64,000 nucleotides of DNA, taken from assembly GCA_963806905.1 (NCBI GenBank), contig CAWEAA010000008.1, positions 392,447 through 456,446 on the forward strand, read 5' to 3'. Below are positions 2,141 through 24,594 of the stretch, in pieces (position 1 is the first letter of the stretch; each line of letters begins with the position of its first letter). A program made the translations under genes and the position numbers. The notes under the pieces are model-generated. The model worked only from the letters and a program-made list of their open reading frames with translations. It was not told the origin of the DNA and ran no database searches. Source of the DNA: an uncultured Verrucomicrobiae bacterium. GTDB lineage: Bacteria > Verrucomicrobiota > Verrucomicrobiia > Limisphaerales > UBA11358.

Positions 2141-4690
2141 TCAATTTGAGGCTGGCTCGATTTCGACATAATCAATGGGTGCCTTCTCGCCGCCGTCAGC
2201 GATGGCATCAATGCGAATCTCGTCGTTCGGACGCAGCGCAATGCCATGTGCGGTGTGCCGCGTGGAAGTGTGGCCGTTGGGAAGGGATGGAACATTGCGC
2301 GAAGGCAGCATGTCGTCCGCCAGCCATTGGTCAACGTTCTGTCCGGCCACGAAAAGTTTGTACTGCGACACGCCGTTGGTCTGGTCGTAATATTGCACCG
2401 CCAAATCAAACCAGCCCGGTTGGCCGGTATAATTGAAGCTGGCCGAACCGTGGCCATCGGCGCTGACAATGCGAATCGCCTTGCCGCCGGACGCCGTTTC
2501 CCACGGCGTCACGTCAAAGATTTCATACCCGTCCAGTTTCATGGATTCGGCTTCGATGCGGTTCGGGTCGTTCCCAACGCGGCCCTGCTGGTCGGGAATG
2601 CCGGACATTTTGAAAAACCACTGGCACACGGCATCGCGCCACTCCGTGGCATGGCCAACCTGATATTCCAGTCGCGCCAGCGTTTCATTGTAACGTTGTT
2701 CGTCGATTTTACCTTTGAGCGATTTCCACTGCTCAACCAGTCTTTGCACCTGCCCCACGCCTTTGTAATGCGTATCATAGATATGCTGAATCACAGTTTT
2801 GCCGGAATGCAAAACGTAGTTGTAGGGCACGTGATGGAAAAACAGGAGCAATTCGTCCGGGCAGGTTGCCAATGACTCGAACATGTCCGAAACGGGCGCA
2901 TGATATTGCGCGGTGAAACCGGTGCCGGTCGCGACGGTTCGGTCCATGCCAATGCCGTGCTCGTCACCACGATGCCATTGCCCCCAGCCGTTGCGTTCGG
3001 ACGATTCGATGCCCGGGCCGTAATGGACTTCGATAATGTCGGTCAATCCGCCCACGCCGAGCGGGCCGGTGTAATTTTCATAAGTGCGCCACGAATTTAA
3101 TTGCATGTCGGAAATTGTCCTGACGACCTGCGGGTCGTGACCGAAAGTCAACTTCGTCCATTCGTTTGCAATTTGGGTGCTGCTCAAGTCCGGATTCCAC
3201 GCGAGGCGACCGAAGCCGTAGAGATTCGCCAGCGCGAGCGGATGGCCGAGCCAGTTGATGTCGAGGCCGACATTGGCCACACCGGCAATTCCGCCAGTGG
3301 GTTGGCCGAAAACCTTTCCGGCTACCAGCGCCTTGACCGGCGTGTTCGCGCCCTTGGCGTGCACGTCGAAATCGAGCGTCTCCTTCCACATCGGCACTTC
3401 GAAGCACAGGTGACGTTGTTGGCCGAGATATTCCTGCGTGATTTGCAGTTCAATCACCAGGGCGGTCTTTTCGAGGCCGCCGAACAGCGGTGACGCCGGC
3501 TCGCGCACCTGAAAATCAATCGGCCCGTTCTTGATTTGAATGATGGCGTTGTCGTCGAATTTGCCGTCGAGGTCGTGAAAATTGTCGTAGGCGGCCTTGG
3601 CGCGGTCGTTTTTCAAATTGCGCCAGTCGGCGTGATGGTTGTAAACGAAGCCGCGATAAAAAACCATTCCGCCGTGCGCCTTGAGCGGGCGGGCGACCAC
3701 GTTCGCCGCGTCGGCGTGCGTGCGGCCGTAGGCCGACGGGCCGAGTTCGCCCTCGGAATCCGCCTTCATGATGAACCCGCCAAAGTCGGGAATCGCGGCG
3801 TAAATGGCATCCACCTTTTGGTTCCAGAAATCAATGACGCGCGGGTCGAGCGGGTCAAAGGTGTCGAGCCCGCCAATGCTTTTCGGGCTGCCAAAGTTGA
3901 TGCAGACAAACAGTTTCACGCCCCAGGGACGGAATGCCTCCGCCACGCGGGCGATTTCCGGGATATGTTCACTGTCAATGACGTGCGGATCCGCGTTGAC
4001 GTTGTTGATGGAACAACCGTTGATGCCGAGCGAAGCCAACAGGCGCGCGTAATCGCCCACGCGGGTCAGGTTTTTGATGATGTGTCCGTTGTCCCAAAAA
4101 ATGGACCTGCCGGCGTAACCGCGTTCAATGCTGCCGTTGGGATTGTCCCATTGGTTGATGATGCGGACCGGCGCATAAGGACTTTCCTTTTCATCGAGCG
4201 CCGAAATCGGTTCGTGCAACGACATTTTCCGCAACAAGGTGAAAGCGCCGTAAAGCACGCCGCGCTCGTTCGGCGCGGAAATGATAAGGACATTGCGTCC
4301 CTCAAGCCGAATCGTTTTCAAATCAAACCCGTCTTCCTTCAAATCCGCCGGCGCGTTGAAGGTCGGCACCACTTTTTTAATTTCGTCGAAGGTGCCGAGC
4401 AGGATGGCATTTTCATCCGGCAACGCCGTTTCGGTTCGCAAAGTTCTATCGAGCATGCCACGCACGCCGCGAATCAACTCGTTTTGGGCTGATTGGGCGA
4501 CTTCCGAACTGCCCAAAGTCACGACGGCGGCGGGCAGTGATTCGTCGTAATTTCTTTTGATTGAGGCATCGTCAATCTTTTCATAGCGGAGCCAGCCTTC
4601 GTAGCCGGTCTCCGCCCGCAATTGGACGGCAAAGGTGGAAATTGAAAGCAGCAGGACAAAAAAGCCGGGGGAGAAATGTGATGTTTTCAT
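2141..4690 (-). CDS. aguA: GH67 alpha-glucuronidase with C-terminal CBM-like module
   Basis: 849-aa ORF with a signal peptide. N-terminus ETGYEGWLRYEKIDD and overall length and sequence are typical of GH67. An extra C-terminal beta-sandwich-like ~130 aa is present (IEAESMKLDGYEIFD...YVEIEP). Confidence 0.9.
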   Translation of the reverse strand: MKTSHFSPGFFVLLLSISTFAVQLRAETGYEGWLRYEKIDDASIKRNYDESLPAAVVTLGSSEVAQSAQNELIRGVRGMLDRTLRTETALPDENAILLGTFDEIKKVVPTFNAPADLKEDGFDLKTIRLEGRNVLIISAPNERGVLYGAFTLLRKMSLHEPISALDEKESPYAPVRIINQWDNPNGSIERGYAGRSIFWDNGHIIKNLTRVGDYARLLASLGINGCSINNVNADPHVIDSEHIPEIARVAEAFRPWGVKLFVCINFGSPKSIGGLDTFDPLDPRVIDFWNQKVDAIYAAIPDFGGFIMKADSEGELGPSAYGRTHADAANVVARPLKAHGGMVFYRGFVYNHHADWRNLKNDRAKAAYDNFHDLDGKFDDNAIIQIKNGPIDFQVREPASPLFGGLEKTALVIELQITQEYLGQQRHLCFEVPMWKETLDFDVHAKGANTPVKALVAGKVFGQPTGGIAGVANVGLDINWLGHPLALANLYGFGRLAWNPDLSSTQIANEWTKLTFGHDPQVVRTISDMQLNSWRTYENYTGPLGVGGLTDIIEVHYGPGIESSERNGWGQWHRGDEHGIGMDRTVATGTGFTAQYHAPVSDMFESLATCPDELLLFFHHVPYNYVLHSGKTVIQHIYDTHYKGVGQVQRLVEQWKSLKGKIDEQRYNETLARLEYQVGHATEWRDAVCQWFFKMSGIPDQQGRVGNDPNRIEAESMKLDGYEIFDVTPWETASGGKAIRIVSADGHGSASFNYTGQPGWFDLAVQYYDQTNGVSQYKLFVAGQNVDQWLADDMLPSRNVPSLPNGHTSTRHTAHGIALRPNDEIRIDAIADGGEKAPIDYVEIEPASN

Positions 4691-4857
4691 CGCGTTTCAG
4701 AATGCATTTATCGCCAAAGGGTAGGAGAGGCAATTCGCTCCGCAAGGTGAAAGCGCCCGAGAATAGTACATTGTATTCCCTGCCTCACTCCGTCGTTGCC
4801 CGAATTCAAGAAAGCATTTATGATACTAACTTGAGTCATACGCGCAAAACCAGTCGC

Positions 4858-6519
4858 ATGAGTGTCGAACTACATTTCAACGGTCTGCGAACCAGCGTCA
4901 CGCCGGGTTCGTCGCTGTTCGATTACGCCGAATCGCTCGGCGTGCATGTGCCGACGTCCTGCCGCAAGCAGGGCAAATGCAAGGAGTGTGTCGTGGAGGT
5001 CGTCGAAGGCATGGAGTGTCTTTCCCCACCCGTGCCGGCGGAAAAACATTTGCAGGGCCAGTTCCGGTTGTCCTGTTCCTGTAAAATCATTGCCGACCCC
5101 GGCGTGGTCCGCTGCCACACGATGCGGCGCGGGGAGATGAAAATCGAACGTCACGCGTTTCAACTCCCGACGGGAGATAAAAAATGGAAACTGGATCCTG
5201 CCGTCACCCGCGATGGCGACCGGATCCTTCTGGACGGGGAGGAAATAGAACGTTCGCCCGGGCCGATTCACGGGCTGGCGCTGGATTTGGGGACGACGAC
5301 AATCGTTCTCCGGCTCTTGAACCTGGAAACCGGCGAGGTGGTCGCCGATGCTTCATTCGAAAATCCGCAACGCTTTGGCGGCTCGGACGTGATGGCGCGC
5401 ATCCATTACGACACGCACGACCACAGCAAATTGCTGCAACGGACGCTCGCCGGATATTTGAGCCACGCCATCGAGGAATTTCCGGTTGACCCAAAGACGA
5501 TTTACGAAATGGTCGTCGCGGGCAATTCCACCATGCGCGACCTGTTCTTTCGCTTGAACGTTTATTCCATCGGCCAAAGCCCCTATCGCTCCATCACCGA
5601 ACTGGAAATGGCGGAAGGCCGCCGGACGACGACCAGCCTGGCCGAGCCGGCGAAAAAGTTGTTGTTGCCACTGCATCCCCGGGCGCGGGCCTATGGCCTG
5701 CCCATCATCAGCGGTCACGTCGGCGCGGATGCCGCCGCCTGCATGCTGGCCGCGGATCTGGCGAATGAGGAACGGCTGGTGGCCGTCATGGACATCGGCA
5801 CGAACACGGAATTGATTCTGGGAAATAAAAACAAGATTTTCGCGGCGTCCTGTCCGGCCGGCCCGGCGTTTGAGGGTGGCAAGATTTCCTGCGGCATGCC
5901 GGGACTGCCGGGCGCCATCGAAAAGGTGAAGCTCAACCCGGACGGTTCATTTGCCGTGCAAGTGATCGGCGACGGTCGCGCGGAAGGCATTTGCGGTTCC
6001 GGCCTGGTGGATTTGTTGAGTGAACTTCTGAAGAACAATCGTATCAATTCCCTGGGCCGGTTTGAGAACGGTGAGGACAGGATTGTCCTCGAGGTGAACA
6101 GCGACTCGCCGGTTTATTTCTCCGAAAGCGACATCAACGAACTGGCGCAGGCCAAGGGCGCCAATGTCGCGGGCCTGCACATTATTTTCGATCAATACGG
6201 AGCCCGATTTGAAGACTTGGGCGTTTTTTATCTGGCTGGCGGCTTTGGCCGGCATCTGGACATTGGATCCTCGAAACGCATCGGCTTGATTCCGGACATT
6301 GACGATTCAAAAATTTTGCAGGTTGGCAACGCTTCGATTGAAGGCGCCTGCATCGCCTTGTTGTCGCGGACGAAGCGCATGGAACTGGAAGATATGGTCA
6401 AACACGTGACGCACTGCCGTCTGGAAGCCCACCCGCATTTCTTCGATTACTTCGTTGAAGGCTGCCAGTTTAATCCCGTGGTATCTCCAGACGCGCCGGC
6501 GGGCCGGCAAACTTCCTGA
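4858..6519 (+). CDS. RACo-type ATP-dependent corrinoid reductive activase (2Fe-2S ferredoxin + ASKHA ATPase)
   Basis: ATG 4858 lies in frame inside ORF 4561-6519. N-terminal plant-type ferredoxin domain (SCRKQGKCKEC = C-x5-C-x2-C). Actin-fold phosphate motifs LALDLGTTTIV and VMDIGTNTE. Confidence 0.85.
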   Translation: MSVELHFNGLRTSVTPGSSLFDYAESLGVHVPTSCRKQGKCKECVVEVVEGMECLSPPVPAEKHLQGQFRLSCSCKIIADPGVVRCHTMRRGEMKIERHAFQLPTGDKKWKLDPAVTRDGDRILLDGEEIERSPGPIHGLALDLGTTTIVLRLLNLETGEVVADASFENPQRFGGSDVMARIHYDTHDHSKLLQRTLAGYLSHAIEEFPVDPKTIYEMVVAGNSTMRDLFFRLNVYSIGQSPYRSITELEMAEGRRTTTSLAEPAKKLLLPLHPRARAYGLPIISGHVGADAAACMLAADLANEERLVAVMDIGTNTELILGNKNKIFAASCPAGPAFEGGKISCGMPGLPGAIEKVKLNPDGSFAVQVIGDGRAEGICGSGLVDLLSELLKNNRINSLGRFENGEDRIVLEVNSDSPVYFSESDINELAQAKGANVAGLHIIFDQYGARFEDLGVFYLAGGFGRHLDIGSSKRIGLIPDIDDSKILQVGNASIEGACIALLSRTKRMELEDMVKHVTHCRLEAHPHFFDYFVEGCQFNPVVSPDAPAGRQTS

Positions 6520-6528
6520 ATTTTTGAC

Positions 6529-7827
6529 ATGTTCGAACTGATTGACCCCCATCCACCCGTCAACGTGCAGGAGGCCGAATACCGGCGGTTGCTCGGATAT
6601 CCGAAGCAACACGTGCCGGACGGGCGGGCGCGCGAACTCGCCGACCAGGCGCGGGCATGGTATGCGGAAAACGGGAAGCCGTGGATTTATGCCCGGCAGA
6701 CCAGCGGCCTGGAACTGAAAAATAAACGGCTGCGGATGCACGGAACGGAATTCGCGTCGAAACAGCTTCACGATCAATTTATCGTCGCTCAGGCTCACAC
6801 GGCGGTGCTCGTCGCGGTGGGCGCCGGCCGGGAATGCGAGGAGATGGCGCGCCAGCTCTGGCAGGAGGGAAAACCGGACGAATATTTTTTCATGGAGATG
6901 TATGGCTCCGCGGTGGTCGAGCATCTGGTAACGGTGGCCAGCGGCCACATCTGCGGCTGGGCCGATCAAAACGGCATGGCAGCCCTGCCGCATTACAGTC
7001 CGGGTTATTCCGGCTGGGACATATCCGATCAAATCAAACTATGGAAATTGATCCGGCAAAAACCGGGCCGCGAATTTCCCGGCGACATTCAGGTGCTGGA
7101 CACCGGGATGTTGCGGCCCAAGAAATCGCTTTTGGCGGTGTTTGGTATCACGCGGCATTTGGACACGGTGCGGAACTTGGCGACATTGGTTCCCTGCGAA
7201 AACTGCTCGCTGCCGCGCTGTCAATATCGCCGCGCGCCGTATCAGCATTCGCCGCCGCAAATTGAAGACGTGCGCCGGTTCCAGGGCGGTGCGGTTGAAA
7301 AGCCGGAAGCGCCGGTCACCGCCGGCTCAACGCTGGATCATAATGCCAGATATACCGTCAATTCCCGTGCGTTGCAAAAATGGTCGCAGGAACGGCTGCA
7401 ATTGAAATTTTTGGAGGACCGTTCGGTGGCAGCCCGCTTTCGTTACGAAGGCACCACCTGTTCCAACCTGGGGCAGCCGCTGGCATTTGACTATGAAGTA
7501 AAACTCGGGCCGCCCGACGACGGCTACCGGGTGCTGGCAACCGGTTGCGTTCCGGCTCCCGGCGACCGCGGCCACAAAGACCAGTGCGAGTATCTGAACA
7601 ACGCTGAATCGCTCATGAGCAGCATTGCAAACGAGAAACCCCTGCTCGGCAAACCCTTGAACGAGGTTCTGGCCTGGGAACGTCCCTACGATCCTTCCGG
7701 CTGTTATTGCGATTTGGCCCGGCGCGCGCATAAATGGGGCCTGGTCTTTGAGGTGATTCATTACGCACTGGTCCGGCGCGAAAAGGAAACGGGCAGTGTT
7801 GGACAACCGGCGGGTTTTTTGAAATGA
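6529..7827 (+). CDS. MetH reactivation (SAM-binding) domain-like protein fused to an uncharacterised Cys-rich C-terminal half
   Basis: 432-aa ORF starting 9 nt after the activase stop. The N-terminal ~230 aa resemble stand-alone 'vitamin B12-dependent methionine synthase activation domain' proteins (YRRLLGYP, HYSPGYSGWDISDQ). The C-terminal ~190 aa carry CENCSLPRC and GCYC, with no family recognised. Confidence 0.6.
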   Translation: MFELIDPHPPVNVQEAEYRRLLGYPKQHVPDGRARELADQARAWYAENGKPWIYARQTSGLELKNKRLRMHGTEFASKQLHDQFIVAQAHTAVLVAVGAGRECEEMARQLWQEGKPDEYFFMEMYGSAVVEHLVTVASGHICGWADQNGMAALPHYSPGYSGWDISDQIKLWKLIRQKPGREFPGDIQVLDTGMLRPKKSLLAVFGITRHLDTVRNLATLVPCENCSLPRCQYRRAPYQHSPPQIEDVRRFQGGAVEKPEAPVTAGSTLDHNARYTVNSRALQKWSQERLQLKFLEDRSVAARFRYEGTTCSNLGQPLAFDYEVKLGPPDDGYRVLATGCVPAPGDRGHKDQCEYLNNAESLMSSIANEKPLLGKPLNEVLAWERPYDPSGCYCDLARRAHKWGLVFEVIHYALVRREKETGSVGQPAGFLK

Positions 7828-7840
7828 TGCGGTACTTTCG

Positions 7841-8167
7841 ATGACAAAACTTTGCGACATCAATGCGGCGGCAAAGGAAAAACTTCCGCCCGGGTTCGCC
7901 GACAAATCGGGCATCGGCGTGCAATACACTGATGCCTTCGTCAAACCCATGAACACCAAACTTCCCGATGGCACGCGTGTCGGCTGCAAACGCAAAGGGC
8001 TGAAATTGACGCTCATCGTCGGCACCAAAAAAGGCGAAGGCTTGATGCGCCGGCTCGATGTCAGCAAAGACCCGGTCGTGATGCTGAACGCCGCCCTTCA
8101 AGAAGCCGCGAAAGCCGCCGGCGTTGAATTGAAAGTCACGGACAGCGAAATTTTTATCACCGCGTAG
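7841..8167 (+). CDS. hypothetical protein (108 aa)
   Basis: ORF 13 nt after the previous stop and 17 nt before the next start, with composition like its neighbours. No motif recognised. Confidence 0.5.
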   Translation: MTKLCDINAAAKEKLPPGFADKSGIGVQYTDAFVKPMNTKLPDGTRVGCKRKGLKLTLIVGTKKGEGLMRRLDVSKDPVVMLNAALQEAAKAAGVELKVTDSEIFITA

Positions 8168-8184
8168 TCCAGCGCCTGCGGCTT

Positions 8185-9495
8185 ATGCAAAACAAACACG
8201 CTTCCAATTTTATTATTGCGTCGTTTTTTTTGGCGGTGGCGAATTTCTGTTGCGCGCAGCCGATGGTGGTCGCGCCGGACAAACCAGGCGGCGTCTATCA
8301 GGTCGGTGACACCGTTCATTGGATGGTCGAATGGAAAGGCGGCACCAATGTGCCCGCCGCGCATTACATCCTCAAGAGCGGCGGCCAGACGGGCCTGGGA
8401 CAGGGCAACTTAACCTTCAGCAACGATGTCGCCACGCTGGAGTCGAAGTTTGACCAGCCGAACACAATGCTGGTCGAAGTGCGGTGGCAGCCGGAGAACG
8501 CCACCAATCGTGCCGTTGGCGGCGCTGTCGCCGCGCCGGATAAAATCCTGCCGGCCGCGCCGCCGCCGGCCGATTTCGATGCGTTCTGGAAGGCCAAATT
8601 GAAGGAACTGAAAAAAGTCTCCGCCCATCCGAAGCTCGAAAAAGTGGACAGTGGAAAACCGGGTGTGGCGTATTGGAAAATCACCCTGGACAACATCGGC
8701 GGCACGCATATCCAGGGACAGATTGCGCGCCCTGAAAAAGGCGAAAAATTCCCGGCCTTGTTCATCCCGCAATGGGCGGGGGTTTACGGATTGCAAAAAA
8801 ATTGGGTGACGGACCGTGCGGCGGAAGGCTGGCTGGCACTGAACATCGAACCTCATGACCTGCCGATTGACAAACCCGAAGCGTTTTACAAGGAGCAATT
8901 CGCCGGGCCGCTCAAGGATTATTGGTCCATCGGCAACGACGACCGCGACCAGAGCTATTATTTGCGGATGTATCTGTCCTGTTATCGCGCGGTTGAATAT
9001 TTGAAGACGCGCCCGGACTGGAACGGCAAAACGCTGGTGGTGATGGGCGACAGCCAGGGCGGACAGCAGACCTTGATGATCGCCGGGCTGCATCCGCAAG
9101 ACATCACCGCGGCGCTGGCGCTCGTGCCGGCGGGCGGCGACATGCTCGCACCGGAGGTCGGTCGCGCGCCGGGCTTCCCGCGCTGGTATTTCAATACCGA
9201 AGGCGGCAAAGACCCCAACAAAGTGCACGAGGCGAGCCGGTATTACGACACCGCGAACTTCGCGCGGCATATCAGATGTCCCGTGCTCGTCGGACTCGGA
9301 TTGCGCGATGAAGTTTGTCCGCCATCCAGCGTGTTTGCCTTGGAGAATCAGATCACTTCGCCCAAAGAAGTTGTTATCCTCCCGAAATCCGGCCATCAGG
9401 ACGAGCACGGTACGCAAGCTGCCTACGACAAACGCCGCTGGAGCGCCTGGCTGCCCGCGTTGCGACAAGGCAAGCCCGCGCCCGTGGAGCAATAG
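8185..9495 (+). CDS. CE7-type acetylxylan esterase
   Basis: 436 aa with a signal peptide. Alpha/beta hydrolase with nucleophile elbow GDSQGG and a C-terminal SGHQDEH region as in AXE1/cephalosporin-C deacetylase. An extra N-terminal domain is present. Confidence 0.8.
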   Translation: MQNKHASNFIIASFFLAVANFCCAQPMVVAPDKPGGVYQVGDTVHWMVEWKGGTNVPAAHYILKSGGQTGLGQGNLTFSNDVATLESKFDQPNTMLVEVRWQPENATNRAVGGAVAAPDKILPAAPPPADFDAFWKAKLKELKKVSAHPKLEKVDSGKPGVAYWKITLDNIGGTHIQGQIARPEKGEKFPALFIPQWAGVYGLQKNWVTDRAAEGWLALNIEPHDLPIDKPEAFYKEQFAGPLKDYWSIGNDDRDQSYYLRMYLSCYRAVEYLKTRPDWNGKTLVVMGDSQGGQQTLMIAGLHPQDITAALALVPAGGDMLAPEVGRAPGFPRWYFNTEGGKDPNKVHEASRYYDTANFARHIRCPVLVGLGLRDEVCPPSSVFALENQITSPKEVVILPKSGHQDEHGTQAAYDKRRWSAWLPALRQGKPAPVEQ

Positions 9496-9540
9496 AATTT
9501 CGGAAGGGCGAGTGGCGCCCGAACTTTGACCAGGATTGGC

Positions 9541-11154: not shown

Positions 11155-11162
11155 GGCAGTTG

Positions 11163-12020: not shown

Positions 12021-12027
12021 AAAATTT

Positions 12028-13296
12028 TCAACTCGGTTGTCCGGTCATGATAGTTTGCCGCTTTGCTTTCGGCAGCAGAAAAGCCAGTCCGGCGCAAATC
12101 AACATCCCCACGCCGAGCACGTTGAAAGGAATTGCGGTGCTGTGATATGCCTGCGTCAACCAACCGACCACATACGGCCCCACGAAGCCGCCCAGGTTGC
12201 CGAAGGCGTTGACCGTTCCGAAGACGACACCGATGACGTTGCGCGGCAGGGTTTCGCTGGGAATGGCCCAGAAGGGGGCCATGCCGGCAAACGGCCCGGG
12301 AATGGCCAGACACATGAACGCATACGACAACCAGAAATGGCCGCTCAACAACACGCTCAAAATGAGGCTCGTCCCGCTCATGAAGTAAACCACGGCGACG
12401 TGTCCGCGCCGTTCATGCGTCTTGTCCGAATGCCACGAATTAAGAATCATCACGACTGCCGTCAAGGCATAGGGGATGGCGAACAAGCAGCCATATTGCA
12501 ACGCACTGAAACCTTTTCCTTTCAGCACCGTGGTAAAAAAAGTCATGCAACCGTACGCCGCGCAATTGTGCAAAAAATAAAGCGCGACCATGACGAAGAT
12601 TGACGGGTGGCTCAACCTTTCCGACCAGGAAATTTTTTGCGGCGGCTCCAACGCGACCGATTCTTTCTGCAAAGTGGTTTCAAGAAAACTTTTTCCTTCC
12701 GGAGAAATCCATTTTGCCTCGCGCGGATGGTCGCGGATGGAAAACCACCAGAGCGGCAGCCAGATGAAAGGCAAAATGCCCTCCAGAATCAGCATCTGCT
12801 GCCAGCCATAGGCTCCGAGCAGCCAGCCGGTGAAGGGCGCGGAGCCGGCGATGGCGAGTGGCTGGCAAAGGAGCCAGCAAGCGTTGGCGCGCGCACGTTC
12901 GGCACGCGAAAACCAATTTGCCAGCAAGACGAGCATCGCGGGAAAAACCGCGCTTTCCGCAACTCCGAGGAAGAACCGCATCACTTCAAATTGCCGGAAG
13001 GTCTGCGAAAGTCCGCAACCAATCGCACAAATGCCCCAGCCGATCAGGCACAGACTGATGACTTTGCGGGCGCTCCAATACGATGCCAGATAGCCGCCCG
13101 GAATCTGCAGCAGGAGGTAGCCGAAAAAGAAAATGCCGGCGGCCTCGCCTTTCATGCGGTCGTCCATGAACAAGTCCTTCATCATCGTCGAGATATTCGG
13201 GTCGAGGGCGAGCGAGACGTTGGTGCGGTCTATGTACGAAATCGTGTACATGAGCAACGCGACGGGAATGATGCGCAACCAACGTTGTTGTGTCAT
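12028..13296 (-). CDS. MFS transporter, ACS (acid-sugar: hexuronate/aldonate) family-like
   Basis: 422 aa, about 12 hydrophobic spans. N-terminal motif [10 protein letters not shown] is typical of the anion:cation symporter subfamily. Confidence 0.85.
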
Positions 13297-13389
13297 AGGC
13301 TCAGGGTGCGGGTTCTTAGCAAGCCGGTTGAAGCGCGTCGAATCTTAATTCTGATTTTCATTTTTTCCAGACATGCTTCAATTACTCCC

Positions 13390-15351
13390 ATGAGTTCCAG
13401 CCACGACGTGTTCGATTCCGACATCCCGGAAATCTACGAGCTTCAGACCCATGCCCACGGTCCGGCGGGGAGCCTGCCGATTACCGAAGAAATGCTCCGG
13501 AACAGTCCCAGCGGCGATTTGTTTGGGATGACGCAAAACGCCGGCATGGGCTGGAACCCGGCCGAGACGGGGCGGAAACAGTTCCTGATTCTCAGCACGC
13601 AAGGCGGACTGCGCGCCCCAGACGGCAAACCGATTGCCCTCGGTTATCATACCGGTCATTGGGAAATCGGATTGCTCGTTCAGGCCGCGGCGGAGGAATT
13701 TCGCCGGTTGCAGGTCATTCCCTTTGCCGGGTTTTGTTCCGATCCCTGTGATGGCCGGACGCAGGGAACCACCGGCATGTTCGACAGCCTGCCGTATCGC
13801 AATGACGCCGCCATCCTTTTCCGGCGTCTCGCCCGGTCGCTGCCGCTTCGCGCCGGCGTGCTGGGCATAGCGACGTGTGACAAAGGGTTGCCGGCGATGA
13901 TGATGGCGGTGGCGGGTTTGCACGATTTGCCGTGCGTCATTGTTCCCGGCGGCGTTACGTTGCCGGCGGATGCGGCGGAAGATGCCGGCACGGTGCAAAC
14001 GCTGGGCACGCGCTTTGCGCATGGACTGGTTTCACTTTCCGAAGCTGCGGAATTGGGTTGCCGCGCCTGCGGCTCACCGGGCGGCGGCTGTCAATTTCTG
14101 GGCACGGCGGCGACTTCGCAGGTGGTCAGTGAAGCGCTTGGGCTTTCATTGCCGCACTCGGCGCTCGCACCGTCGGGTCAACCGGTATGGCTGGACATGG
14201 CCCGGCGCTCGGCCCGCGCGCTGCACCAACTGCATGAACGCAAACTCAAGGTGCGTGATATTCTAACCGATGCCAGCATCCAGAACGCGATGGCGCTGCA
14301 CGCCGCATTCGGCGGTTCAACGAATCTGTTGTTGCATATTCCGGCCATCGCCCACGCCGCCGGTCTGAAACCTCCGACGGTGGAGGATTGGATTTCCGTC
14401 AATCGCCGTGTTCCCCGGCTGGTCAGCGTATTGCCGAACGGGCCGGTTCATCATCCCACGGTTCGCGTGTTCCTGGCGGGCGGCGTGTCGGAAGTGATGT
14501 TGCATCTGCGCCACCTGGGTTTGCTAAACGTTGAGGTGATTACGGTCACGGGAAGAACCTTGGGTGAAAACCTGGATTGGTGGGAAAAATCCGAACGGCG
14601 CCGGCGTTTCCGGGAATTATTGAAGCAGCAGGACGGTGTGGACGCCGACGAAGTCATCTTTCCGCCGGACAAAGCCCGAGCGCGCGGCCTGACGTGCACG
14701 CTGGTTTTTCCGCGCGGCAATCTGGCGCCGGAAGGTTCCGTGGTGAAAGCCACGGCGATTGATCCGTCGGTCGTGGACGCGACCGGCGTTTATCGCAAGG
14801 AGGGCCCGGCGCGCGTTTTTGTGAACGAAAAGGACGCAATGGCGGCCATCAAAGCAGGGCGCATCAAGGCGGGTGATGTGCTGGTGTTGACCGGCATTGG
14901 GCCGATGGGCACGGGCATGGAAGAAACTTACCAGGTCACTGGCGCGCTCAAGCATGTGCCCTTTGGCAAACAGGTCGCGCTCCTGACCGACGCCCGTTTT
15001 TCGGGGCTTTCGACCGGCGCGTGCATCGGCCATATCGGCCCCGAAGGACTGGCGGGCGGTCCCATTGGCAAGGTTTTGGACGGCGACATCATCCGCATTC
15101 ATATTGACTGCAAGCGCAACGAGGGGAGTGTTGATTTGGTGGGAGAGGGTCAACGCCGCTTCACGCCGGAGGAAGGCCGCCGGGTGCTGGCAGCGCGCGG
15201 GCAGCGAAAGGATCTTGCGTCAAATGCTGCTTTGCCGGAGGACACGCGGCTTTGGGCGGCCCTGCAACTGGCCAGCGGCGGGACGTGGGCCGGGTGCGTG
15301 TATGACGCGGAGCAAATCATCGCAACGCTCAAAGCCGGCAGAAAAAGTTGA
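13390..15351 (+). CDS. IlvD/Edd-family sugar-acid dehydratase, YjhG/YagF (xylonate dehydratase)-like
   Basis: ATG 13390 lies in frame within ORF 12607-15351; the upstream part is antisense to the MFS gene. 653 aa. Motifs [10 protein letters not shown] and GPMGTGMEE and the length are typical of the long pentonate dehydratases. Confidence 0.85.
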
Positions 15352-15561
15352 ACCGATCAGAAATCCGGCAAGTCCAAACCCGGTTCGCACCGGCTTGGAT
15401 TCACCAAATTCGCAGGTGGCGAATTTTCGCCAACAAAAAGAATTTACTTCTTGCTGTAAACGACGTGTGCGTCATGTAGCGGTCTCGAACCCGCCCCGTC
15501 CATCAACGTTCCGACGCGGAGCCAGATACTTTGTCCGTTGATTGCGGATGGGATCGCGGTC

Positions 15562-16491
15562 CTAATCTCCGGCTTCGGCATTGCCCCAGAGGTTCATAAC
15601 GGCCTCGGCTTGGCGGAATCCAGCCGTTTCCTGGGATTCGCCTTCGGCGGCCCTGCCTTGCTGCAAGGCTTCTTGGAGGCTCGCCACCATTGGGTGGTCC
15701 GCAGGCGACGGTCCGGTTGCGCTTTCGGGATTGGCTATGGCAAAATCCAGCCCGGCTTCCATCCCTACCCTGAGATAGGCTTTTTCCAGTTCATGGCGGA
15801 CATGCTTCGGCGTGCCCCAGGCAAAATTGGACAGTCCCACCGTCAAATGGACGCCGCGCAAATCAGGGTCCTGACGAATGAGCCGCATGGCATCCAGCCC
15901 GATGTTTACCAGTCCGTAGGTGTCGGCCCCAACCGGGGCGAGTCCTGTGTCAATGAGGATTTGGTCGTTGCGCCGGCCTGCCTTGGTGACGAGCAGTTCG
16001 ACAAAATGCTTTGCGGCGGCATGAACATCCCGCGGGTTGAGGCACTGCGCCGTCCCACCGTCGGCAAACCGTTCCGAAGCCATGACGATGACGAGCGTGT
16101 CGTAGGCCGCCACCAGTTCGACCATTTCCTCGAGCCGTTCGCGGGAGGCAGCGATGGAATTCAGGATGGGCGCCCCGCCTTTGGAACGGTCATAATGCTT
16201 CAGTGCGACTTTGTGGTATTCCACGGAAGGGTTGTCGATGCAAAGTGGCAGATGCGTTACCTCCTGAATGGCGGGAATCACGTCGGGCAGAAAGGCCCGC
16301 ATTTCCTCCAGTTTCACCTGGATTTGCCGGGTGCCATCAATGTTGACATCCAGAAAATCCACGCCGAGATTGGTCTGTAATTTGGCCAGGTTTTGATAGC
16401 CTTCCAGATTCTTGGCGATGAAGGCGTTGCGGGCCCGGGCGTAGGCGTTATTGATCAAATCACCAATAATCCGTAGTTTTTTGGGGTTCAT
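15562..16491 (-). CDS. pterin-binding methyltransferase (methyl-H4folate:corrinoid methyltransferase, MeTr/AcsE-like)
   Basis: 309 aa with a DHPS-like pterin-binding TIM-barrel pattern (IIGDLIN, FLDVNIDG, PILNSIAAS). Last gene of the three-gene operon. Confidence 0.75.
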   Translation of the reverse strand: MNPKKLRIIGDLINNAYARARNAFIAKNLEGYQNLAKLQTNLGVDFLDVNIDGTRQIQVKLEEMRAFLPDVIPAIQEVTHLPLCIDNPSVEYHKVALKHYDRSKGGAPILNSIAASRERLEEMVELVAAYDTLVIVMASERFADGGTAQCLNPRDVHAAAKHFVELLVTKAGRRNDQILIDTGLAPVGADTYGLVNIGLDAMRLIRQDPDLRGVHLTVGLSNFAWGTPKHVRHELEKAYLRVGMEAGLDFAIANPESATGPSPADHPMVASLQEALQQGRAAEGESQETAGFRQAEAVMNLWGNAEAGD

Positions 16492-16572
16492 TTTTCTCTC
16501 CTCCTATGACAACTGCTTCGATGTGTTGGAACGTATTTTTGCTGTTCGCAGTAAATTAGCAGCCTTCGGTGG

Positions 16573-17601
16573 TCAGGGAAACTTTGCTTCCAACTCCTTC
16601 TTAACGGTTTCGGCGACTTCTTCGGGCGAGCCAGCTTGCTCCGCAGGCTCGCTCCAGCGCAGTTGCGACATGTAACGGTCAGCCTGAATGAGGCCCTGCC
16701 GTTGCGCCGAGGCGTCAATACGCTCGGCGAAACGCGGCGGCAGGTTGACTCTAACTTCATCGAAATCATCCCATGCTTTCACTTCGGAAGGAATGTCCTG
16801 CCAGGAGAGAATCTGGAATTTCGATTTGGCATTCGGATCGCGCTGCCCCTTTGATTCAGCGCGCTCGGCCTTGACGGACTCGATGGTTTTCAATTTAGAC
16901 CAGGCCCTCGGCGCGGCACCTTTGCCCATCAAATAAAGGAACAAATCCACGGCGCTCGACGCATCTGCGCCATAACCATCCGCGCCGATTTCGTCGGCAT
17001 ACATCTGGCTGATGGGCGCGCCGCCGATGGCGAACTTGATATGGTTGAGGCCGCGCTCTTTAAAGCCGTCAATCACGACCTTCATGTAAATCATCGTCGT
17101 GGTCAGCAACGCGCTCATGCCGATGATTTGCGGCTTGTGCAGTTCGGTGGCGGCAAGAAATTTCTCGATGCTTTGGTCCACCCCGAGGTCATGGACTTCA
17201 AAACCCGCGCCCTCGGCCATCATACAGACGAGGTTTTTCCCAATGTCATGCAAATCGCCGCGGACGGTTCCCATGAGAACAACTCCGGACGGTTGCACGG
17301 TGGAGTCTTTTGCGGTCAGCAACGGTTTCAACACGGTCATGCCGGCTTTCATGGCGCGGGCGGCAATCAGCACTTCGGGCACGTAGAGAATGTTGCGTTT
17401 GAAGTCCTCGCCCACGACGCTCATGCCGGCGATCAATCCCTCGGTCAAAACTTCCTGAACGTTCCGGCCTTCAGCCAGAGCGTCTTTGGTCATCTGTTCG
17501 ACCTCCTTGGCCTTGCCTTCGTACAGGCACTGGTTCATTAACGCGTAGTCTGGCATCTGGTCTTTCTCTTTCGAAAAATCCTGAAAATTACCGCTTGGCA
17601 T
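16573..17601 (-). CDS. corrinoid (B12-binding) protein with C-terminal ~110-aa extension
   Basis: 342 aa. Helical cap plus Rossmann B12-binding domain with DxHxxG (GDLHDIGKN), MSALLTTT and a GG motif. Alternative ATG at 17556. Confidence 0.85.
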   Translation of the reverse strand: MPSGNFQDFSKEKDQMPDYALMNQCLYEGKAKEVEQMTKDALAEGRNVQEVLTEGLIAGMSVVGEDFKRNILYVPEVLIAARAMKAGMTVLKPLLTAKDSTVQPSGVVLMGTVRGDLHDIGKNLVCMMAEGAGFEVHDLGVDQSIEKFLAATELHKPQIIGMSALLTTTMIYMKVVIDGFKERGLNHIKFAIGGAPISQMYADEIGADGYGADASSAVDLFLYLMGKGAAPRAWSKLKTIESVKAERAESKGQRDPNAKSKFQILSWQDIPSEVKAWDDFDEVRVNLPPRFAERIDASAQRQGLIQADRYMSQLRWSEPAEQAGSPEEVAETVKKELEAKFP

Positions 17602-18634
17602 TGAATTCCGCCAACGCTTCCAGCATGGCGAGGATGTTCTGTTTGGGCATTCCGGGACTGGTGCCGCCGCCGACGGACAGAATCATGCCCCGGTCGCCGC
17701 CTTTTTCAAGAACATCCAGCGTCGCTTTGCGCACTTCCTCCGGCGTGCCGCGGACGCCGACTTCGAGCGGATTCACATTCCCCATCAGGCACATGCGGTC
17801 ACCCACGCGCTCCTTCACCTCGGCGATGTCCGTTTGTTTTCCCCAGTTCAAGACGTTGAACCCGCAATCCGGCAGATGATCCAGACAGGCTTGGATTTCC
17901 GCATCGTTGTGGTAGATTTTCACCCAATCACTTGGGAAGGCGTCGCAAATGCGTTTCAGGTAAGGGTGACAAAATTCCTGGTAATGCTCTTCGTTTACGA
18001 AACCGACGATGTCATCCAGAACAAAAATGCCTTCCACCGTATTGCCCAGGGCCTTGTGCTGGGCTTTCAACCAGTCAATGACCAGCCGCGTGCATAAATC
18101 GAGCAGTTTGTGCGACCACTCCGGCTTTTCCACAAGATCTATCATCAGATTGGTCGTGCCGCGCACAAAACCCGCCGTACACATCGGTCCACGCGACGTA
18201 ACCAGTGGCAGAATTTCTCCGGTGTCAAGGATGCGTTGCTTCTGCATGCGGATGCGATGCAGTGTCATCGCCATGAAGGCGTCGTTCTCCACTTCGTATT
18301 CCGGGAATTCTTCAATATCTTCGATGTGATAAAGCGTGTGATATTCGCTGGGCGTGTTGTCCTGCCAGAATTTGATCTTGCATCCCAACGCCGATGGTTC
18401 CGCCGCCATGCCATATTCCATCCACCAGGAAGGAACCCAGATGATGTCAGGGAACTCCTTGTGAATTTTTAGATGCGATTGAAACCACAATTCAGGATCG
18501 AGATAAAAATCCATGTGTTTGAGACCGAGATACCCGGGTATCCATGGACTGTCCACGATCATGGCCATCGGCACTTTGTCCAATTTTTCCAGCCGTGCGG
18601 CTTGCTTGAATGTTTGCCACTGTTCTGGCCTCAT
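17588..18634 (-). CDS. URO-D superfamily methyltransferase (MtaA/CmuA-like), candidate substrate:corrinoid methyltransferase
   Basis: 348 aa, uroporphyrinogen-decarboxylase-like fold throughout. Overlaps the corrinoid protein gene by 14 nt. Confidence 0.8.
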   Translation of the reverse strand: MRPEQWQTFKQAARLEKLDKVPMAMIVDSPWIPGYLGLKHMDFYLDPELWFQSHLKIHKEFPDIIWVPSWWMEYGMAAEPSALGCKIKFWQDNTPSEYHTLYHIEDIEEFPEYEVENDAFMAMTLHRIRMQKQRILDTGEILPLVTSRGPMCTAGFVRGTTNLMIDLVEKPEWSHKLLDLCTRLVIDWLKAQHKALGNTVEGIFVLDDIVGFVNEEHYQEFCHPYLKRICDAFPSDWVKIYHNDAEIQACLDHLPDCGFNVLNWGKQTDIAEVKERVGDRMCLMGNVNPLEVGVRGTPEEVRKATLDVLEKGGDRGMILSVGGGTSPGMPKQNILAMLEALAEFNAKR

Positions 18635-20693: not shown

Positions 20694-20731
20694 TTTTCCC
20701 TCAACCACCAACGTTCAACCTCAACTGACAG

Positions 20732-21133: not shown

Positions 21134-21151
21134 TCGCGCTGGAAATTTCCA

Positions 21152-21188
21152 GGCCCCGCTGGCAAAACCGGCGGGGCTTTTTTGTTTT
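21152..21188 (+). terminator. rho-independent terminator after rpsI
   Basis: GCCCCGCTGG / CCGGCGGGGC stem followed by TTTTTTGTTTT. Confidence 0.7.
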
Positions 21189-21251: not shown

Positions 21252-21266
21252 GGTAAGATTTGAAAT

Positions 21267-22307: not shown

Positions 22308-22316
22308 GTTTGCAAG

Positions 22317-24568: not shown

Positions 24569-24594
24569 AACATCTTTTTCACACCGCACCAATC

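Follow-up and report, generated by a model that had tools for sequence, protein, structure and literature searches.

In Ruegeria, the MtgBCDE system combines a shared corrinoid protein with pterin and homocysteine methyltransferases and is fed by a substrate-specific module (PMC12478193). A split cobalamin-dependent methionine synthase (MetH) with a RamA-type activase has been established in Phaeobacter and Ruegeria (PMC12478193). For methylated sugars, no corrinoid route was found in the published literature, in agreement with the original prediction, which had held that none was described for methylated sugar acids. The locus analyzed here, in a 64,000-nucleotide stretch of DNA (the window) from an uncultured soil Verrucomicrobiae bacterium, had been put forward as a candidate corrinoid demethylase for 4-O-methyl-glucuronate, and this reading is supported by recurrent linkage to xylan genes. 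By a modest lean, we favor the view that the corrinoid cassette may be an accessory module of glucuronoxylan side-chain utilization, demethylating 4-O-methyl-glucuronate in the cytoplasm. What the sequences show directly is which domains are present, that the cassette is conserved, and that it is repeatedly linked to glucuronoxylan genes; we infer where the methyl comes from and which way the flux runs, and the substrate is suggested by gene neighborhood alone.

All open reading frames of the block spanning 2141 to 18634 are present where they had been placed, and the gene calls and family assignments stand when checked with Pfam and NCBIfam profiles. The cassette within it is real and comprises a methyltransferase of the URO-D superfamily, proposed as the substrate:corrinoid methyltransferase (MT I), a corrinoid protein, a pterin-binding methyltransferase (proposed MT II), a RACo-type activase, a protein with the MetH activation-domain fold (orf432), and a 108-amino-acid protein (orf108). 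We compared it with 80 related loci, the closest relatives and a non-random, phylogenetically non-independent sample, in which the corrinoid protein adjoins the URO-D methyltransferase in 76, orf432 is present in 45 to 47, RACo lies within 10 kb in 40 to 42, and orf108 is found in 50 at 59 to 98% identity.

The URO-D methyltransferase (17588 to 18634, minus strand) had been called a URO-D/MtaA-family protein. This call holds for the URO-D family (Pfam URO-D, E 2e-45) and for the URO-D/MtaA fold of its AlphaFold model (pLDDT 85), but the protein scores under the NCBIfam cut-offs for MtaA/CmuA and HemE. Furthermore, in contrast to MtaA, its orthologues lack the thiol-type zinc site and its ligands, an invariant H-N-D motif replacing H-x-C. 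Among 2726 homologues, the best 120 share 81 to 91% identity with the window protein. At 50% identity, every full-length orthologue clusters in a single group, with the next relatives at 43% or less, and this group is 84 to 99% identical across Verrucomicrobiota, Bacteroidota, Ignavibacteria, KSB1, and Acidobacteria-labelled metagenome-assembled genomes.

The corrinoid protein (16573 to 17601, minus strand), whose gene overlaps that of the methyltransferase by 14 nt, has a cap domain, a Rossmann domain with GDLHDIGK, SAL, and GG motifs, and a C-terminal "Virulence_fact" extension (PF13769); its Pfam B12-binding_2 and B12-binding domains confirm the B12-binding protein with DLHDIGK that had been predicted. 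The MeTr-like call for the pterin-binding methyltransferase (15562 to 16491, minus strand) is borne out by Pfam Pterin_bind and by the NCBIfam methyl-tetrahydrofolate:corrinoid methyltransferase domain. The ATP-dependent reductive activase (4858 to 6519, plus strand) is of RACo type, as proposed, with an N-terminal 2Fe-2S ferredoxin domain (Fer2), RACo middle and C-terminal domains (Raco_middle, RACo_C_ter), and an AcsV/RamA-like NCBIfam match.

The neighboring orf432 (6529 to 7827, plus strand; 432 amino acids), a conserved two-domain protein, gave no match in Pfam, NCBIfam, or PDB sequence searches, and its 3901 homologues are all called hypothetical. Its AlphaFold model (mean pLDDT 72.5) matched the MetH activation domain 1j6r in Foldseek (E 2e-8; TM 0.83), with further MetH reactivation domains as the next matches. 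Because of this match to 1j6r, the earlier "MetH-reactivation-like" description is retained for the N-terminal ~215 residues, where the model predicts an AdoMet-binding activation-domain fold, but not for the remainder, which consists of a Cys-rich linker (C223, C226, and C231) and a C-terminal domain with more invariant Cys residues and no assigned fold. The conserved orf108 (7841 to 8167, plus strand), with no Pfam match even at E 10, always comes after orf432 and is also present in Opitutus terrae. It was absent from the original prediction, as were an amidohydrolase remnant (15360 to 15563, minus strand) and a transposase (18912 to 20108, minus strand). Since the gaps between RACo, orf432, orf108, and the CE7-type esterase gene are only 9, 13, and 17 bp, they support a single operon ending with CE7, and the proposed placement of activase and esterase in one operon stands.

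The xylan genes of the window were also correctly called. The GH67 alpha-glucuronidase (2141 to 4690, minus strand), divergent from the activase operon, has three GH67 Pfam domains (E 2e-146), and the CE7-type acetyl-xylan esterase (8185 to 9495, plus strand) matches Pfam AXE1 (E 4e-38). The CE15 glucuronoyl esterase (23258 to 24568, plus strand; Pfam GCE_fung, E 5e-36) is inserted with a SAM methyltransferase gene on one side and argJ on the other, a position shared with related loci L001 and L080 and not with L002. GH67, CE7, and CE15 carry signal peptides, lipoprotein-like in CE15, and none was found on the URO-D methyltransferase or the corrinoid protein. The aldehyde dehydrogenase (9541 to 11154, minus strand; Pfam Aldedh) finds alpha-ketoglutaric semialdehyde (KGSA) dehydrogenase as its best NCBIfam match, but scores 113 bits where the cut-off is 770, so that the family stands and the KGSA type does not reach the threshold; this gene lies near the cassette in none of the other loci. 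Similarly, the FAH-family protein (11163 to 12020, minus strand; Pfam FAA_hydrolase), near the cassette in four loci, has weak NCBIfam matches, and its claimed XylX likeness holds at family level only. The MFS transporter (12028 to 13296, minus strand; Pfam MFS_1) is of the predicted anion:cation symporter (D-galactonate/hexuronate) type (NCBIfam TIGR00893, 250 bits, under cut-off), has close homologues (76 to 83% identity) near the cassette in five loci, and may import the acid sugar. The XylD-like IlvD/Edd dehydratase (13390 to 15351, plus strand) is confirmed as a YjhG/YagF-family D-xylonate dehydratase (TIGR03432, 1135 bits; cut-off, 808). It is convergent with the methyltransferase operon and lies near the cassette in 9 to 10 loci; in L027, L038, and L056 it is convergent downstream of the amidohydrolase gene, as in the window, and directly downstream in L027 and L038.

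The co-occurrence of methyltransferase operon and xylan genes proposed as a check was found in the relatives. Of the 52 long loci, each covering 15 kb or more, 32 have one or more glucuronoxylan or uronate genes within 10 kb of the cassette, 21 carry CE15, GH115, or GH67, and 20 have no xylan or uronate gene in that range. Neighbors include CE15 (20 loci), UxuA and a GPH transporter (9 each), GH10 (8), GH3 (7), GH115 (6), GH8 (4), and GH67 (2 plus the window). They occur at many differing offsets in Verrucomicrobiota, Opitutaceae, Bacteroidota, Ignavibacteria, and KSB1, and the cassette is found next to glucuronic-acid side-chain genes across at least five bacterial phyla. Adjacency to GH67 or CE7 is rare (2 to 3 of 80 loci each): GH67 is near the cassette in only two other loci (L021 and L043), and CE7 takes the window's position only in L001 and L080. 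We counted Pfam families, in an unbiased census, among the three closest non-core neighbors per locus (203 neighbors). CE15 ranked first, followed by GH28-like, UxuA, GH10, and GH115, an enrichment of CE15 and GH115 judged against this internal control and copy numbers from general knowledge rather than a genome-wide background. GH2, GH5, GH13, GH29, and GH43, which are usually far more numerous, were all absent from the top 25 families, as were other, unrelated CAZy families; GH28-like and GH140-like neighbors point to pectin as well. In the cultured Opitutus terrae PB90-1, the entire cassette lies on one strand with GH115, LacI, and UxuA, in the order GH115, LacI, UxuA, RACo, orf453, orf108, URO-D methyltransferase, corrinoid protein, GH51, methylenetetrahydrofolate reductase (MTHFR), pterin methyltransferase, amidohydrolase, homocysteine methyltransferase, and SDR.

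These neighbors bear on whether the methyl donor might instead be a methoxylated phenolic that comes off along with xylan, for instance ferulate, or lignin fragments that CE15 releases from lignin-carbohydrate esters, with the same chemistry as in the O-demethylases of acetogens, Desulfitobacterium, and Methermicoccus. Desulfitobacterium-type O-demethylases have the same parts list of URO-D methyltransferase, corrinoid protein, pterin methyltransferase, and RACo, the best PDB match of the pterin methyltransferase (4o0q/4o1e) is from Desulfitobacterium hafniense, and CE15, the commonest neighbor, cuts lignin-glucuronoyl esters. Moreover, a phenolate leaves far more readily than the alkoxide of a sugar. 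A secondary alkoxide leaves poorly, and for Co(I) to attack an aliphatic methyl ether, activation by strong acid or a metal is therefore required, as it is for methanol in MtaB. However, families for aromatic catabolism, decarboxylases, and aromatic-acid transporters are all missing from the 25 commonest neighbor families, and feruloyl esterases are not prominent (BD-FAE, 3 of 203 neighbors). The regulators beside the cassette are of the sugar-type LacI and ROK families, and its recurrent partners are alpha-glucuronidases, UxuA, and sugar transporters. The nearest family of paralogues, from Chloroflexi, is likewise located in sugar and sugar-acid operons (LacI, ABC transporter, sulfatase, GlcNAc 2-epimerase, KDPG aldolase, and GarD/UxaA dehydratase). 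We consider an aromatic donor unlikely.

Downstream of the corrinoid protein, the related loci carry either a homocysteine methyltransferase (41/80 loci) or a set of MTHFR with a DUF5981 domain (23/80), pterin methyltransferase (21/80), and amidohydrolase (19/80), with PurU in 12/80; such modules are typical of catabolic demethylation and methionine synthesis. It is conceivable that the corrinoid protein, RACo, and the pterin and homocysteine methyltransferases make up the organism's split MetH, a possibility that the original prediction had listed as a refutation; MTHFR would then serve as MetF, the URO-D protein would be an accessory, and the position beside xylan genes would lack catabolic meaning. 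Homocysteine methyltransferase or full-length MetH is present in 31 of the 52 long loci, MetH taking the homocysteine methyltransferase position in the two closest relatives, L001 and L080, and orf432 carries the activation-domain fold; the established split MetH systems also use a RamA-type activase (PMC12478193). Against this, conservation is highest in the URO-D methyltransferase, which nearly always lies beside the corrinoid protein, PurU and MetVF-like MTHFR suggest methyl oxidation, and full-length MetH has its own B12 domain, making a separate corrinoid protein superfluous. In the window copy, genes for homocysteine methyltransferase, MTHFR, and PurU are all missing, and the non-random neighbor set would be left without explanation. 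As a full account, a split MetH is improbable; since the methyl acceptor most often paired with the cassette is a homocysteine methyltransferase or MetH, the idea is partly real, most likely in the form of a module with dual use rather than an alternative. MtgBCDE offers a precedent for this arrangement (PMC12478193), and such a dual role fits the demethylation reading without competing with it.

The 4-methoxy group is beta to the carbon adjoining the carboxylate, so by chemical reasoning UxuA or IlvD/Edd-type dehydratases could eliminate methanol from 4-O-methyl-glucuronate without any demethylase. A methanol:corrinoid system catching intracellular methanol from this elimination or from methyl esters would fit the recurrence of UxuA and YjhG/YagF dehydratase, as well as the common GH28-like, pectin-type neighbors, and methanol requires the same leaving-group help as the sugar ether. 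Yet the methanol:corrinoid methyltransferases known to us are of MtaB type rather than URO-D type, no MtaB was found in the loci examined, and CE8 pectin methylesterase is not among the top neighbor families. As free methanol diffuses off, there would be little reason for tight glycosidase linkage, and we regard this reading as quite improbable.

The cassette of the window is a reduced version, in which MTHFR is gone and the amidohydrolase, which follows the pterin methyltransferase in intact cassettes, is a 68-amino-acid remnant with an in-frame stop codon (tblastn, 54% identity to the N-terminus of a family representative). Because of these losses, the window copy may be decaying. Directly upstream of the methyltransferase operon lies the rve-family transposase (Pfam rve, E 2e-7, just under the gathering score; weak IS481/IS3 NCBIfam matches), which is absent from the relatives (0/80) and marks a recent rearrangement. 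That a mobile or rearranged cassette merely landed beside xylan genes, as these features and the poor conservation of GH67, CE7, and aldehyde dehydrogenase as neighbors might suggest, is highly improbable, since the same neighbor class recurs across arrangements and phyla and O. terrae has one co-directional cluster.

Because the cassette recurs beside glucuronic-acid side-chain genes, it is the best available candidate for 4-O-methyl-glucuronate demethylation. In the pathway we propose, exported GH67 or GH115, CE15, and CE7 would free 4-O-methyl-glucuronate, which the MFS or a GPH transporter would import. The URO-D methyltransferase would then move the ether methyl to corrinoid Co(I) in the cytoplasm, yielding glucuronate and methyl-Co(III); activating the ether would take strong acid or a metal, whose site here is putative. 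From domain homology and gene content, the pterin methyltransferase would pass the methyl to tetrahydrofolate, as in the window, and in fuller cassettes MetVF-like MTHFR and PurU would oxidize it onward. Alternatively, a stand-alone homocysteine methyltransferase, the commonest arrangement elsewhere, would direct it to methionine. By homology, RACo, probably aided by the activation-domain protein, would re-reduce oxidized Co(II), and glucuronate would enter uronate catabolism, e.g., via UxuA. If true, this would be an undescribed way to take the methyl group off the 4-O-methyl-glucuronic acid of plant xylan.

Every ORF named in the original prediction was found at its assigned position, and profile searches bore out the family calls with the exception of orf432, a 432-residue protein (6529-7827, + strand) with no profile match. 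The claim of a complete O-demethylase-type set was upheld, as methyltransferase I, corrinoid protein, methyltransferase II and activase each contain the expected domains in Pfam, NCBIfam or PDB comparisons. The URO-D-family methyltransferase (17588-18634, - strand), corresponding to methyltransferase I, matches Pfam URO-D at an E value of 2e-45, and its gene overlaps that of the corrinoid protein (16573-17601, - strand) by 14 nt. The corrinoid protein combines the Pfam B12-binding_2 cap with a B12-binding Rossmann domain, and its translation contains GDLHDIGK, SAL and GG motifs, including the DxHxxG pattern. The pterin-binding methyltransferase (15562-16491, - strand), corresponding to methyltransferase II, matches Pfam Pterin_bind and the NCBIfam PRK07535 domain, with the Desulfitobacterium hafniense structures 4o0q/4o1e as its top PDB match. 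The RACo activase (4858-6519, + strand) carries Fer2 (2Fe-2S), Raco_middle and RACo_C_ter domains. Gaps of only 9, 13 and 17 bp separate RACo, orf432, the 108-residue orf108 (7841-8167, + strand) and the CE7 esterase, indicating a single RACo-orf432-orf108-CE7 operon, in line with the original placement of activase and esterase in one operon.

On the carbohydrate side, three enzymes scored above the Pfam gathering thresholds: GH67 (2141-4690, - strand), with N, M and C domains; CE7/AXE1 (8185-9495, + strand; AXE1, 131 bits); and CE15 (23258-24568, + strand; GCE_fung, 125 bits). Signal peptides are present at the N-termini of all three, and inspection of the N-termini of the URO-D methyltransferase and the corrinoid protein revealed none. 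The IlvD/Edd dehydratase (13390-15351, + strand) passed the cut-off of the NCBIfam YjhG/YagF D-xylonate dehydratase model, a hypothetical-equivalog, with 1135 bits against 808. Profile matches were also obtained for an aldehyde dehydrogenase (9541-11154, - strand), an FAH-family protein (11163-12020, - strand) and an ACS-type MFS transporter (12028-13296, - strand); for the XylX/XylA-like steps of a Weimberg-type xylonate pathway (2-keto-3-deoxy-xylonate dehydratase and alpha-ketoglutaric semialdehyde dehydrogenase), the FAH and aldehyde dehydrogenase matches are at family level and far under the NCBIfam equivalog cut-offs. The CE15 gene is flanked by argJ and by a gene for a class I SAM methyltransferase, within an argC ... 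argJ arrangement (21267-25995), and overlaps the argJ start by 22 nt. This insertion before argJ is common to two related loci, L001 and L080, and is missing from a third, L002, where the SAM methyltransferase adjoins argJ. A 268-residue ORF (20486-21292, - strand) without a Pfam or NCBIfam match recurs at 84-93% identity in L001, L002 and L080, with argC on one side and the methyltransferase on the other; it could be genuine or could reflect an antisense artefact in a GC-rich region. The remainder of the window holds housekeeping genes.

The original prediction proposed that this corrinoid system belongs to a glucuronoxylan side-chain locus. To determine the context of the methyltransferase elsewhere, 10 kb on each side was surveyed in the 80 closest genomic loci (L001-L080); locus ORFs were clustered without prior labels, and recurrent families were annotated afterwards. 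Methyltransferase orthologues proved to be linked to glucuronoxylan genes in other genomes, with at least one glucuronoxylan or uronate gene in 32 of the 52 loci of at least 15 kb, and CE15, GH115 or GH67 in 21 of these 52. Among all 80 loci, the recurrent neighbours were CE15 (20 loci), GH115 (6), GH67 (2, plus the window), GH10 (8), GH3 (7), GH8 (4), a GPH-type sugar transporter (9), UxuA mannonate dehydratase (9) and xylonate dehydratase (9), together with GDSL esterases and LacI and ROK regulators. The linkage is therefore broad, being carried by CE15, GH115 and UxuA, whereas adjacency to GH67 or CE7, as seen in the window, occurs in 2-3 of the 80 loci each and was rejected as a conserved signal. 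These neighbours lie at many offsets and orientations in several phyla, so the pattern is not a single syntenic block passed on by descent. An unselected Pfam scan of the three non-core ORFs lying nearest in each locus (203 proteins) served as an internal control. CE15 was the most frequent family (13), followed by GH28-like proteins, UxuA, GH10 and GH115. GH2, GH5, GH13, GH29 and GH43, which are normally far more numerous in such genomes, fell outside the top 25 families of these 203 neighbours, and no aromatic-catabolism family was among the common ones. GH28 is a pectin-type family, and the presence of GH28-like (14/80) and GH140-like (5/80) neighbours suggests that the link may extend to pectic substrates. 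In six loci (L027, L033, L035, L036, L038 and L043), the methyltransferase is immediately preceded by a block made up of CE15, a beta-helix protein of GH28-like type and a small GNAT-like ORF; the block is partial in L054 and L056, and these loci are of the Pedosphaerales type. Collectively, these findings indicate that the cassette is very probably tied functionally to the use of glucuronoxylan side chains.

The composition of the cassette was examined in the same 80 loci. A corrinoid protein adjoins the URO-D methyltransferase in 76, and the core partners found within 10 kb are orf108 (50/80), orf432 (45-47/80) and RACo (40-42/80). Downstream of the corrinoid protein, 41 of the 80 loci, and also the cultured Opitutus terrae PB90-1, encode a stand-alone homocysteine S-methyltransferase (PF02574), which points to methionine formation. 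An alternative downstream set comprises a methylenetetrahydrofolate reductase (MTHFR) with an acetogen-type C-terminal DUF5981 (23/80), the pterin methyltransferase (21/80) and an amidohydrolase (19/80), and formyl-tetrahydrofolate deformylase (PurU) is encoded in 12 loci. MTHFR and PurU beside a demethylase is the pattern of the tetrahydrofolate-dependent LigM system of Sphingobium, and their presence here points to oxidation of the substrate-derived methyl group. The amidohydrolase (PF01979; L019, at 14565-15875, and 18 more loci; L081, at 17133-18407) always comes after the pterin methyltransferase in cassettes of the tetrahydrofolate branch, and one is also present in the Chloroflexi paralogue operons L083 and L086. 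The cleanest case of linkage between the cassette and glucuronoxylan is O. terrae PB90-1 (DSM 11246), a cultured anaerobe, in which one strand (cluster at CP001032.1 5,618,418-5,639,482) encodes, in order, GH115, LacI, UxuA, RACo, orf453, orf108, the URO-D methyltransferase (ACB77610.1), the corrinoid protein, GH51, MTHFR, the pterin methyltransferase, the amidohydrolase, the homocysteine methyltransferase and an SDR protein.

The window cassette keeps the four canonical O-demethylase components yet is a reduced, rearranged copy. No homocysteine methyltransferase (PF02574), MTHFR, PurU or MetH gene was detected in the entire 64-kb window. Its arrangement resembles that of L027, L038 and L056, in which methyltransferase, corrinoid protein, MTHFR, pterin methyltransferase and amidohydrolase follow one another and are convergent with xylonate dehydratase, and not that of L001, a soil metagenome-assembled genome (MAG) labelled Verrucomicrobiae, despite 99% identity between the two methyltransferases. 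An 81-bp gap separates the corrinoid protein from the pterin methyltransferase at the place normally taken by MTHFR, and directly after the pterin methyltransferase lies a 68-residue N-terminal amidohydrolase remnant with an in-frame stop (15360-15563, - strand). In L001 and L080, the closest relatives of the window, CE7 and the corrinoid protein are separated by a full-length MetH (1349-1412 residues, all five domains) at about 12.2-16.5 kb; the corresponding position in the window is occupied by the pterin methyltransferase and the block of xylonate dehydratase, MFS, FAH and aldehyde dehydrogenase genes. The methyltransferase operon is immediately preceded by an rve-family transposase gene (18912-20108, - strand) that has no counterpart in the 80 related loci. 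Only weak inverted-repeat pairs surround the transposase, for example, an imperfect 26-nt pair at 18921-18946 and 20098-20123, leaving the ends of the element undefined. Rfam searches of the window returned a single match, a tRNA-Gly (TCC) at 42833-42906, and no cobalamin riboswitch or further regulatory RNA. Promoter-like sites (12, against 7.2 +/- 2.9 expected from shuffled sequence) and terminator-like sites (34, against 30.7 +/- 5.8) showed little or no excess and were not used.

The URO-D methyltransferase had 2,726 homologues, of which the best 120 are all 81-91% identical to it. In a library clustered at 50% identity, all full-length orthologues fall under one representative, beyond which no full-length relative exceeds 43% identity; the orthologous group is thus sharply bounded and unusually conserved. 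By their MAG labels, some of which are plainly unreliable (e.g., "Bifidobacteriaceae"), the hosts belong to Verrucomicrobiota (Pedosphaerales/Limisphaerales, Opitutaceae), Bacteroidota, Ignavibacteria, KSB1 and Acidobacteria. Across phyla in L001-L080, identity is 84-99% for the URO-D methyltransferase, compared with 46-94% for orf432, 67-95% for RACo and 55-95% for the corrinoid protein. The high value for the methyltransferase reflects either a constraint unusually strong for a substrate-binding methyltransferase or repeated horizontal transfer of that one gene. Alignment to the MtaA structure 4ay7 showed that the H-i-C of MtaA is replaced by H-N-D and its G-C-G by G-G-G, so the H-x-C ... 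C zinc site of the MtaA/MtbA/MtsA thiol (CoM) methyltransferases is absent; H242-N243-D244 and G322-G323 are invariant throughout the wider subfamily. Structure prediction followed by a Foldseek search confirmed the fold, with UroD and MtaA matching about equally well and no closer solved structure, and the predicted structure therefore carries no substrate information.

The nearest paralogue family, at about 43% identity, occurs in carbohydrate operons of Chloroflexi, as seen in three loci, L083, L084 and L086, a fourth (L087) being uninformative. L083 and L086 encode LacI, glucosamine-6-phosphate isomerase, an SBP_bac_5 ABC transporter, URO-D, a corrinoid protein, a URO-D-like protein, GlcNAc 2-epimerase, a sulfatase and an amidohydrolase. 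In L084, a divergent RACo, pterin methyltransferase and corrinoid protein adjoin URO-D, KDPG aldolase, a second URO-D, a GarD/UxaA dehydratase, DUF1638 and an enolase-superfamily protein. These Chloroflexi URO-D and corrinoid-protein sets may be corrinoid demethylases for other modified sugars.

Neither orf432 nor orf108 gave a match in Pfam (to an E value of 10), NCBIfam or PDB sequence searches. An AlphaFold model of orf432, built on 30 homologues (mean pLDDT, 72.5), matched the MetH activation domain protein TM0269 of Thermotoga (1j6r) in Foldseek (E value, 2e-8; TM score, 0.83), and the MetH reactivation domains of Thermus, E. coli and human ranked next. The description of orf432 as MetH-reactivation-like consequently holds for its N-terminal ~215 residues but not for the C-terminal half, which has no assignment and contains the invariant cysteines C223, C226 and C231 and four more. 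In the 50 loci that keep it, and in O. terrae, orf108 always follows orf432.

Hardwood xylan, like many other xylans, is characterised by its 4-O-methyl-glucuronic acid side chain, and to our knowledge 4-O-methyl-glucuronate is the only methylated sugar in glucuronoxylan; we know of no established route by which bacteria dispose of its methyl ether, particularly without oxygen. The sugar-operon context of the paralogues, the lack of aromatic neighbours and the missing thiol site together make a sugar or sugar acid a likelier donor than a phenolic compound, and we infer that the methyl donor is, on balance, 4-O-methyl-glucuronate. Exported GH67 or GH115, CE15 and CE7 would free 4-O-methyl-glucuronate or aldouronic acids for import by an MFS or GPH transporter. 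The URO-D methyltransferase would methylate the Co(I) of the corrinoid protein, and, judged from domain homology, methyl-Co(III) would pass the methyl group to tetrahydrofolate via the pterin methyltransferase or to homocysteine via the PF02574 protein. By homology, RACo would re-reduce the oxidised cofactor, possibly together with the activation-domain protein. The window also encodes a radical-SAM protein of the HemN type and a HemY-like member of the amine-oxidase family (50783-54690). If the HemN-type protein is an oxygen-independent coproporphyrinogen oxidase, it fits facultative or anaerobic life and hence an O2-sensitive Co(I) system.

One rival explanation is that the cassette captures methanol rather than cleaving the ether. 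An aliphatic alkoxide is a poor leaving group, and direct demethylation would need acid or metal assistance comparable to methanol activation. The 4-methoxy group is beta to the carbon adjoining the carboxylate, and on chemical grounds a dehydratase of the UxuA or IlvD/Edd type could in principle eliminate it as methanol, with no demethylase involved, which keeps methanol capture as a rival to 4-O-methyl-glucuronate demethylation. For ether demethylation, the closest precedents are the four-component corrinoid O-demethylases, namely, Odm/Vdm of Acetobacterium dehalogenans, the D. hafniense system and MtoABCD of Methermicoccus shengliensis, whose parts list is that of the window: a URO-D methyltransferase I, a small DxHxxG corrinoid protein, a methyltransferase II acting on a folate-type carrier and an ATP-dependent 2Fe-2S RACo-type activase. 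Their hosts are acetogens or methanogens and their loci aromatic, whereas the cassette occurs at glucuronoxylan and uronate loci of polysaccharide-degrading Verrucomicrobiota, Bacteroidota, Ignavibacteria, KSB1 and Acidobacteria. Furthermore, its methyltransferase I forms a separate H-N-D clade with solved relatives no closer than MtaA and UroD (46 bits), orf432 and orf108 are extra, and homocysteine is a frequent methyl acceptor. The cassette thus has the architecture of an O-demethylase, for which ether-methyl transfer to Co(I) is the putative reaction.

A second rival is a split methionine synthase. The kind represented by MtgBCDE in Ruegeria pomeroyi and Phaeobacter inhibens, where a substrate-specific donor module feeds tetrahydrofolate and methionine (PMC12478193), is also a precedent for the modular transfer proposed above. 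The cassette at large follows its plan of a single corrinoid protein, pterin-binding and separate homocysteine methyltransferases, and a RamA-type activase; the window itself encodes the corrinoid protein, the pterin methyltransferase and RACo. The two systems differ in the donor module, which in MtgBCDE is of the MttB/pfam06253 type and acts on glycine betaine (PMC12478193) and in the cassette belongs to the URO-D family, with a proposed sugar ether as substrate. They differ also in their accessories, which are orf432 and orf108 here and DUF1638 in MtgBCDE; orf432 and orf108 have no Pfam match, DUF1638 was found only in the paralogue locus L084, and the window copy has no PF02574 homocysteine methyltransferase within its 64 kb. 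Type 1 mlp clusters, in which two or three Mlp (URO-D) paralogues occur without a tetrahydrofolate methyltransferase, are found mainly in obligately anaerobic Firmicutes and are linked to methyl-sulfur or selenium metabolism (Kountz and Balskus; PMC10418091). This assignment was rejected, since the cassette has a single URO-D gene, includes a pterin or homocysteine methyltransferase and lacks a thiol-type zinc site. A methylthiol or CoM-type role more generally appears unlikely from the sequence, given the absent zinc site and scores far below the MtaA/CmuA cut-offs (TIGR01463, 115.5 against 235.4; MtaA and MtbA equivalogs, 86-90 against 400-600). A haem role as HemE uroporphyrinogen decarboxylase is likewise unlikely, with TIGR01464 at 68 against a cut-off of 303 and a corrinoid protein and an activase as neighbours. 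A separate ORF at 52208-53218, beside haem-synthesis genes, gave no sign of being HemE, having no solved-structure match at E values up to 1e-5.

The P450 that demethylates 6-O-methyl-D-galactose in marine Bacteroidota, an O2-dependent enzyme that releases formaldehyde (PMC6292453, PMC9400963), is, as the original prediction held, the only sugar O-demethylase that we found described in the literature searchable outside subscription. Openly available full texts yielded no description of 4-O-methyl-glucuronate or another methylated sugar being demethylated by a corrinoid system; a cockroach gut study, a C. cellulovorans proteome, a tundra metagenome and a paper on lake methanogenesis proved irrelevant to the question. 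The cassette, as proposed, would share the task of the P450, which is to strip a catabolism-blocking methyl ether off a polysaccharide-derived sugar in a polysaccharide-utilisation setting. Unlike the P450 reaction, that of the cassette would be a non-oxidative, oxygen-free transfer in which the methyl group is conserved as methyl-tetrahydrofolate or methionine.

The initial interpretation of the locus as a candidate 4-O-methyl-glucuronate demethylase system, with a putative substrate, withstood the co-occurrence test that the original prediction had set for it. It gains further from the absence of the thiol site, from the sugar operons in which the paralogues lie, from the O. terrae cluster and from the cross-phylum linkage to CE15, GH115 and UxuA. 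A wider reading, which we put forward tentatively, is that the H-N-D clade may comprise widespread, undescribed cobalamin-dependent sugar O-demethylases, the first corrinoid enzymes to cleave aliphatic (carbohydrate) methyl ethers. The group found in the window might demethylate xylan-derived 4-O-methyl-glucuronate in anoxic soils and peat to supply methionine or the folate C1 pool, with the Chloroflexi paralogues acting on other methylated or sulfated glycans and orf432 and orf108 serving as new corrinoid-reactivation accessories. The question can be put to a direct test in cultured O. terrae PB90-1, which has the cluster in full. If the proposal is correct, B12-dependent methyl transfer, known for aryl ethers, amines, thiols and methanol, would reach carbohydrate ethers, and a cobalamin-dependent carbohydrate ether demethylase would surprise specialists of both fields. 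It would also give biomass engineers an enzyme to remove the group that blocks downstream uronate metabolism. It would further place a vitamin B12 demand on the turnover of hemicellulose in soils, peat and sediments and would tie the decay of xylan to the supply of methionine and to a C1 pool able ultimately to feed methanogenesis.
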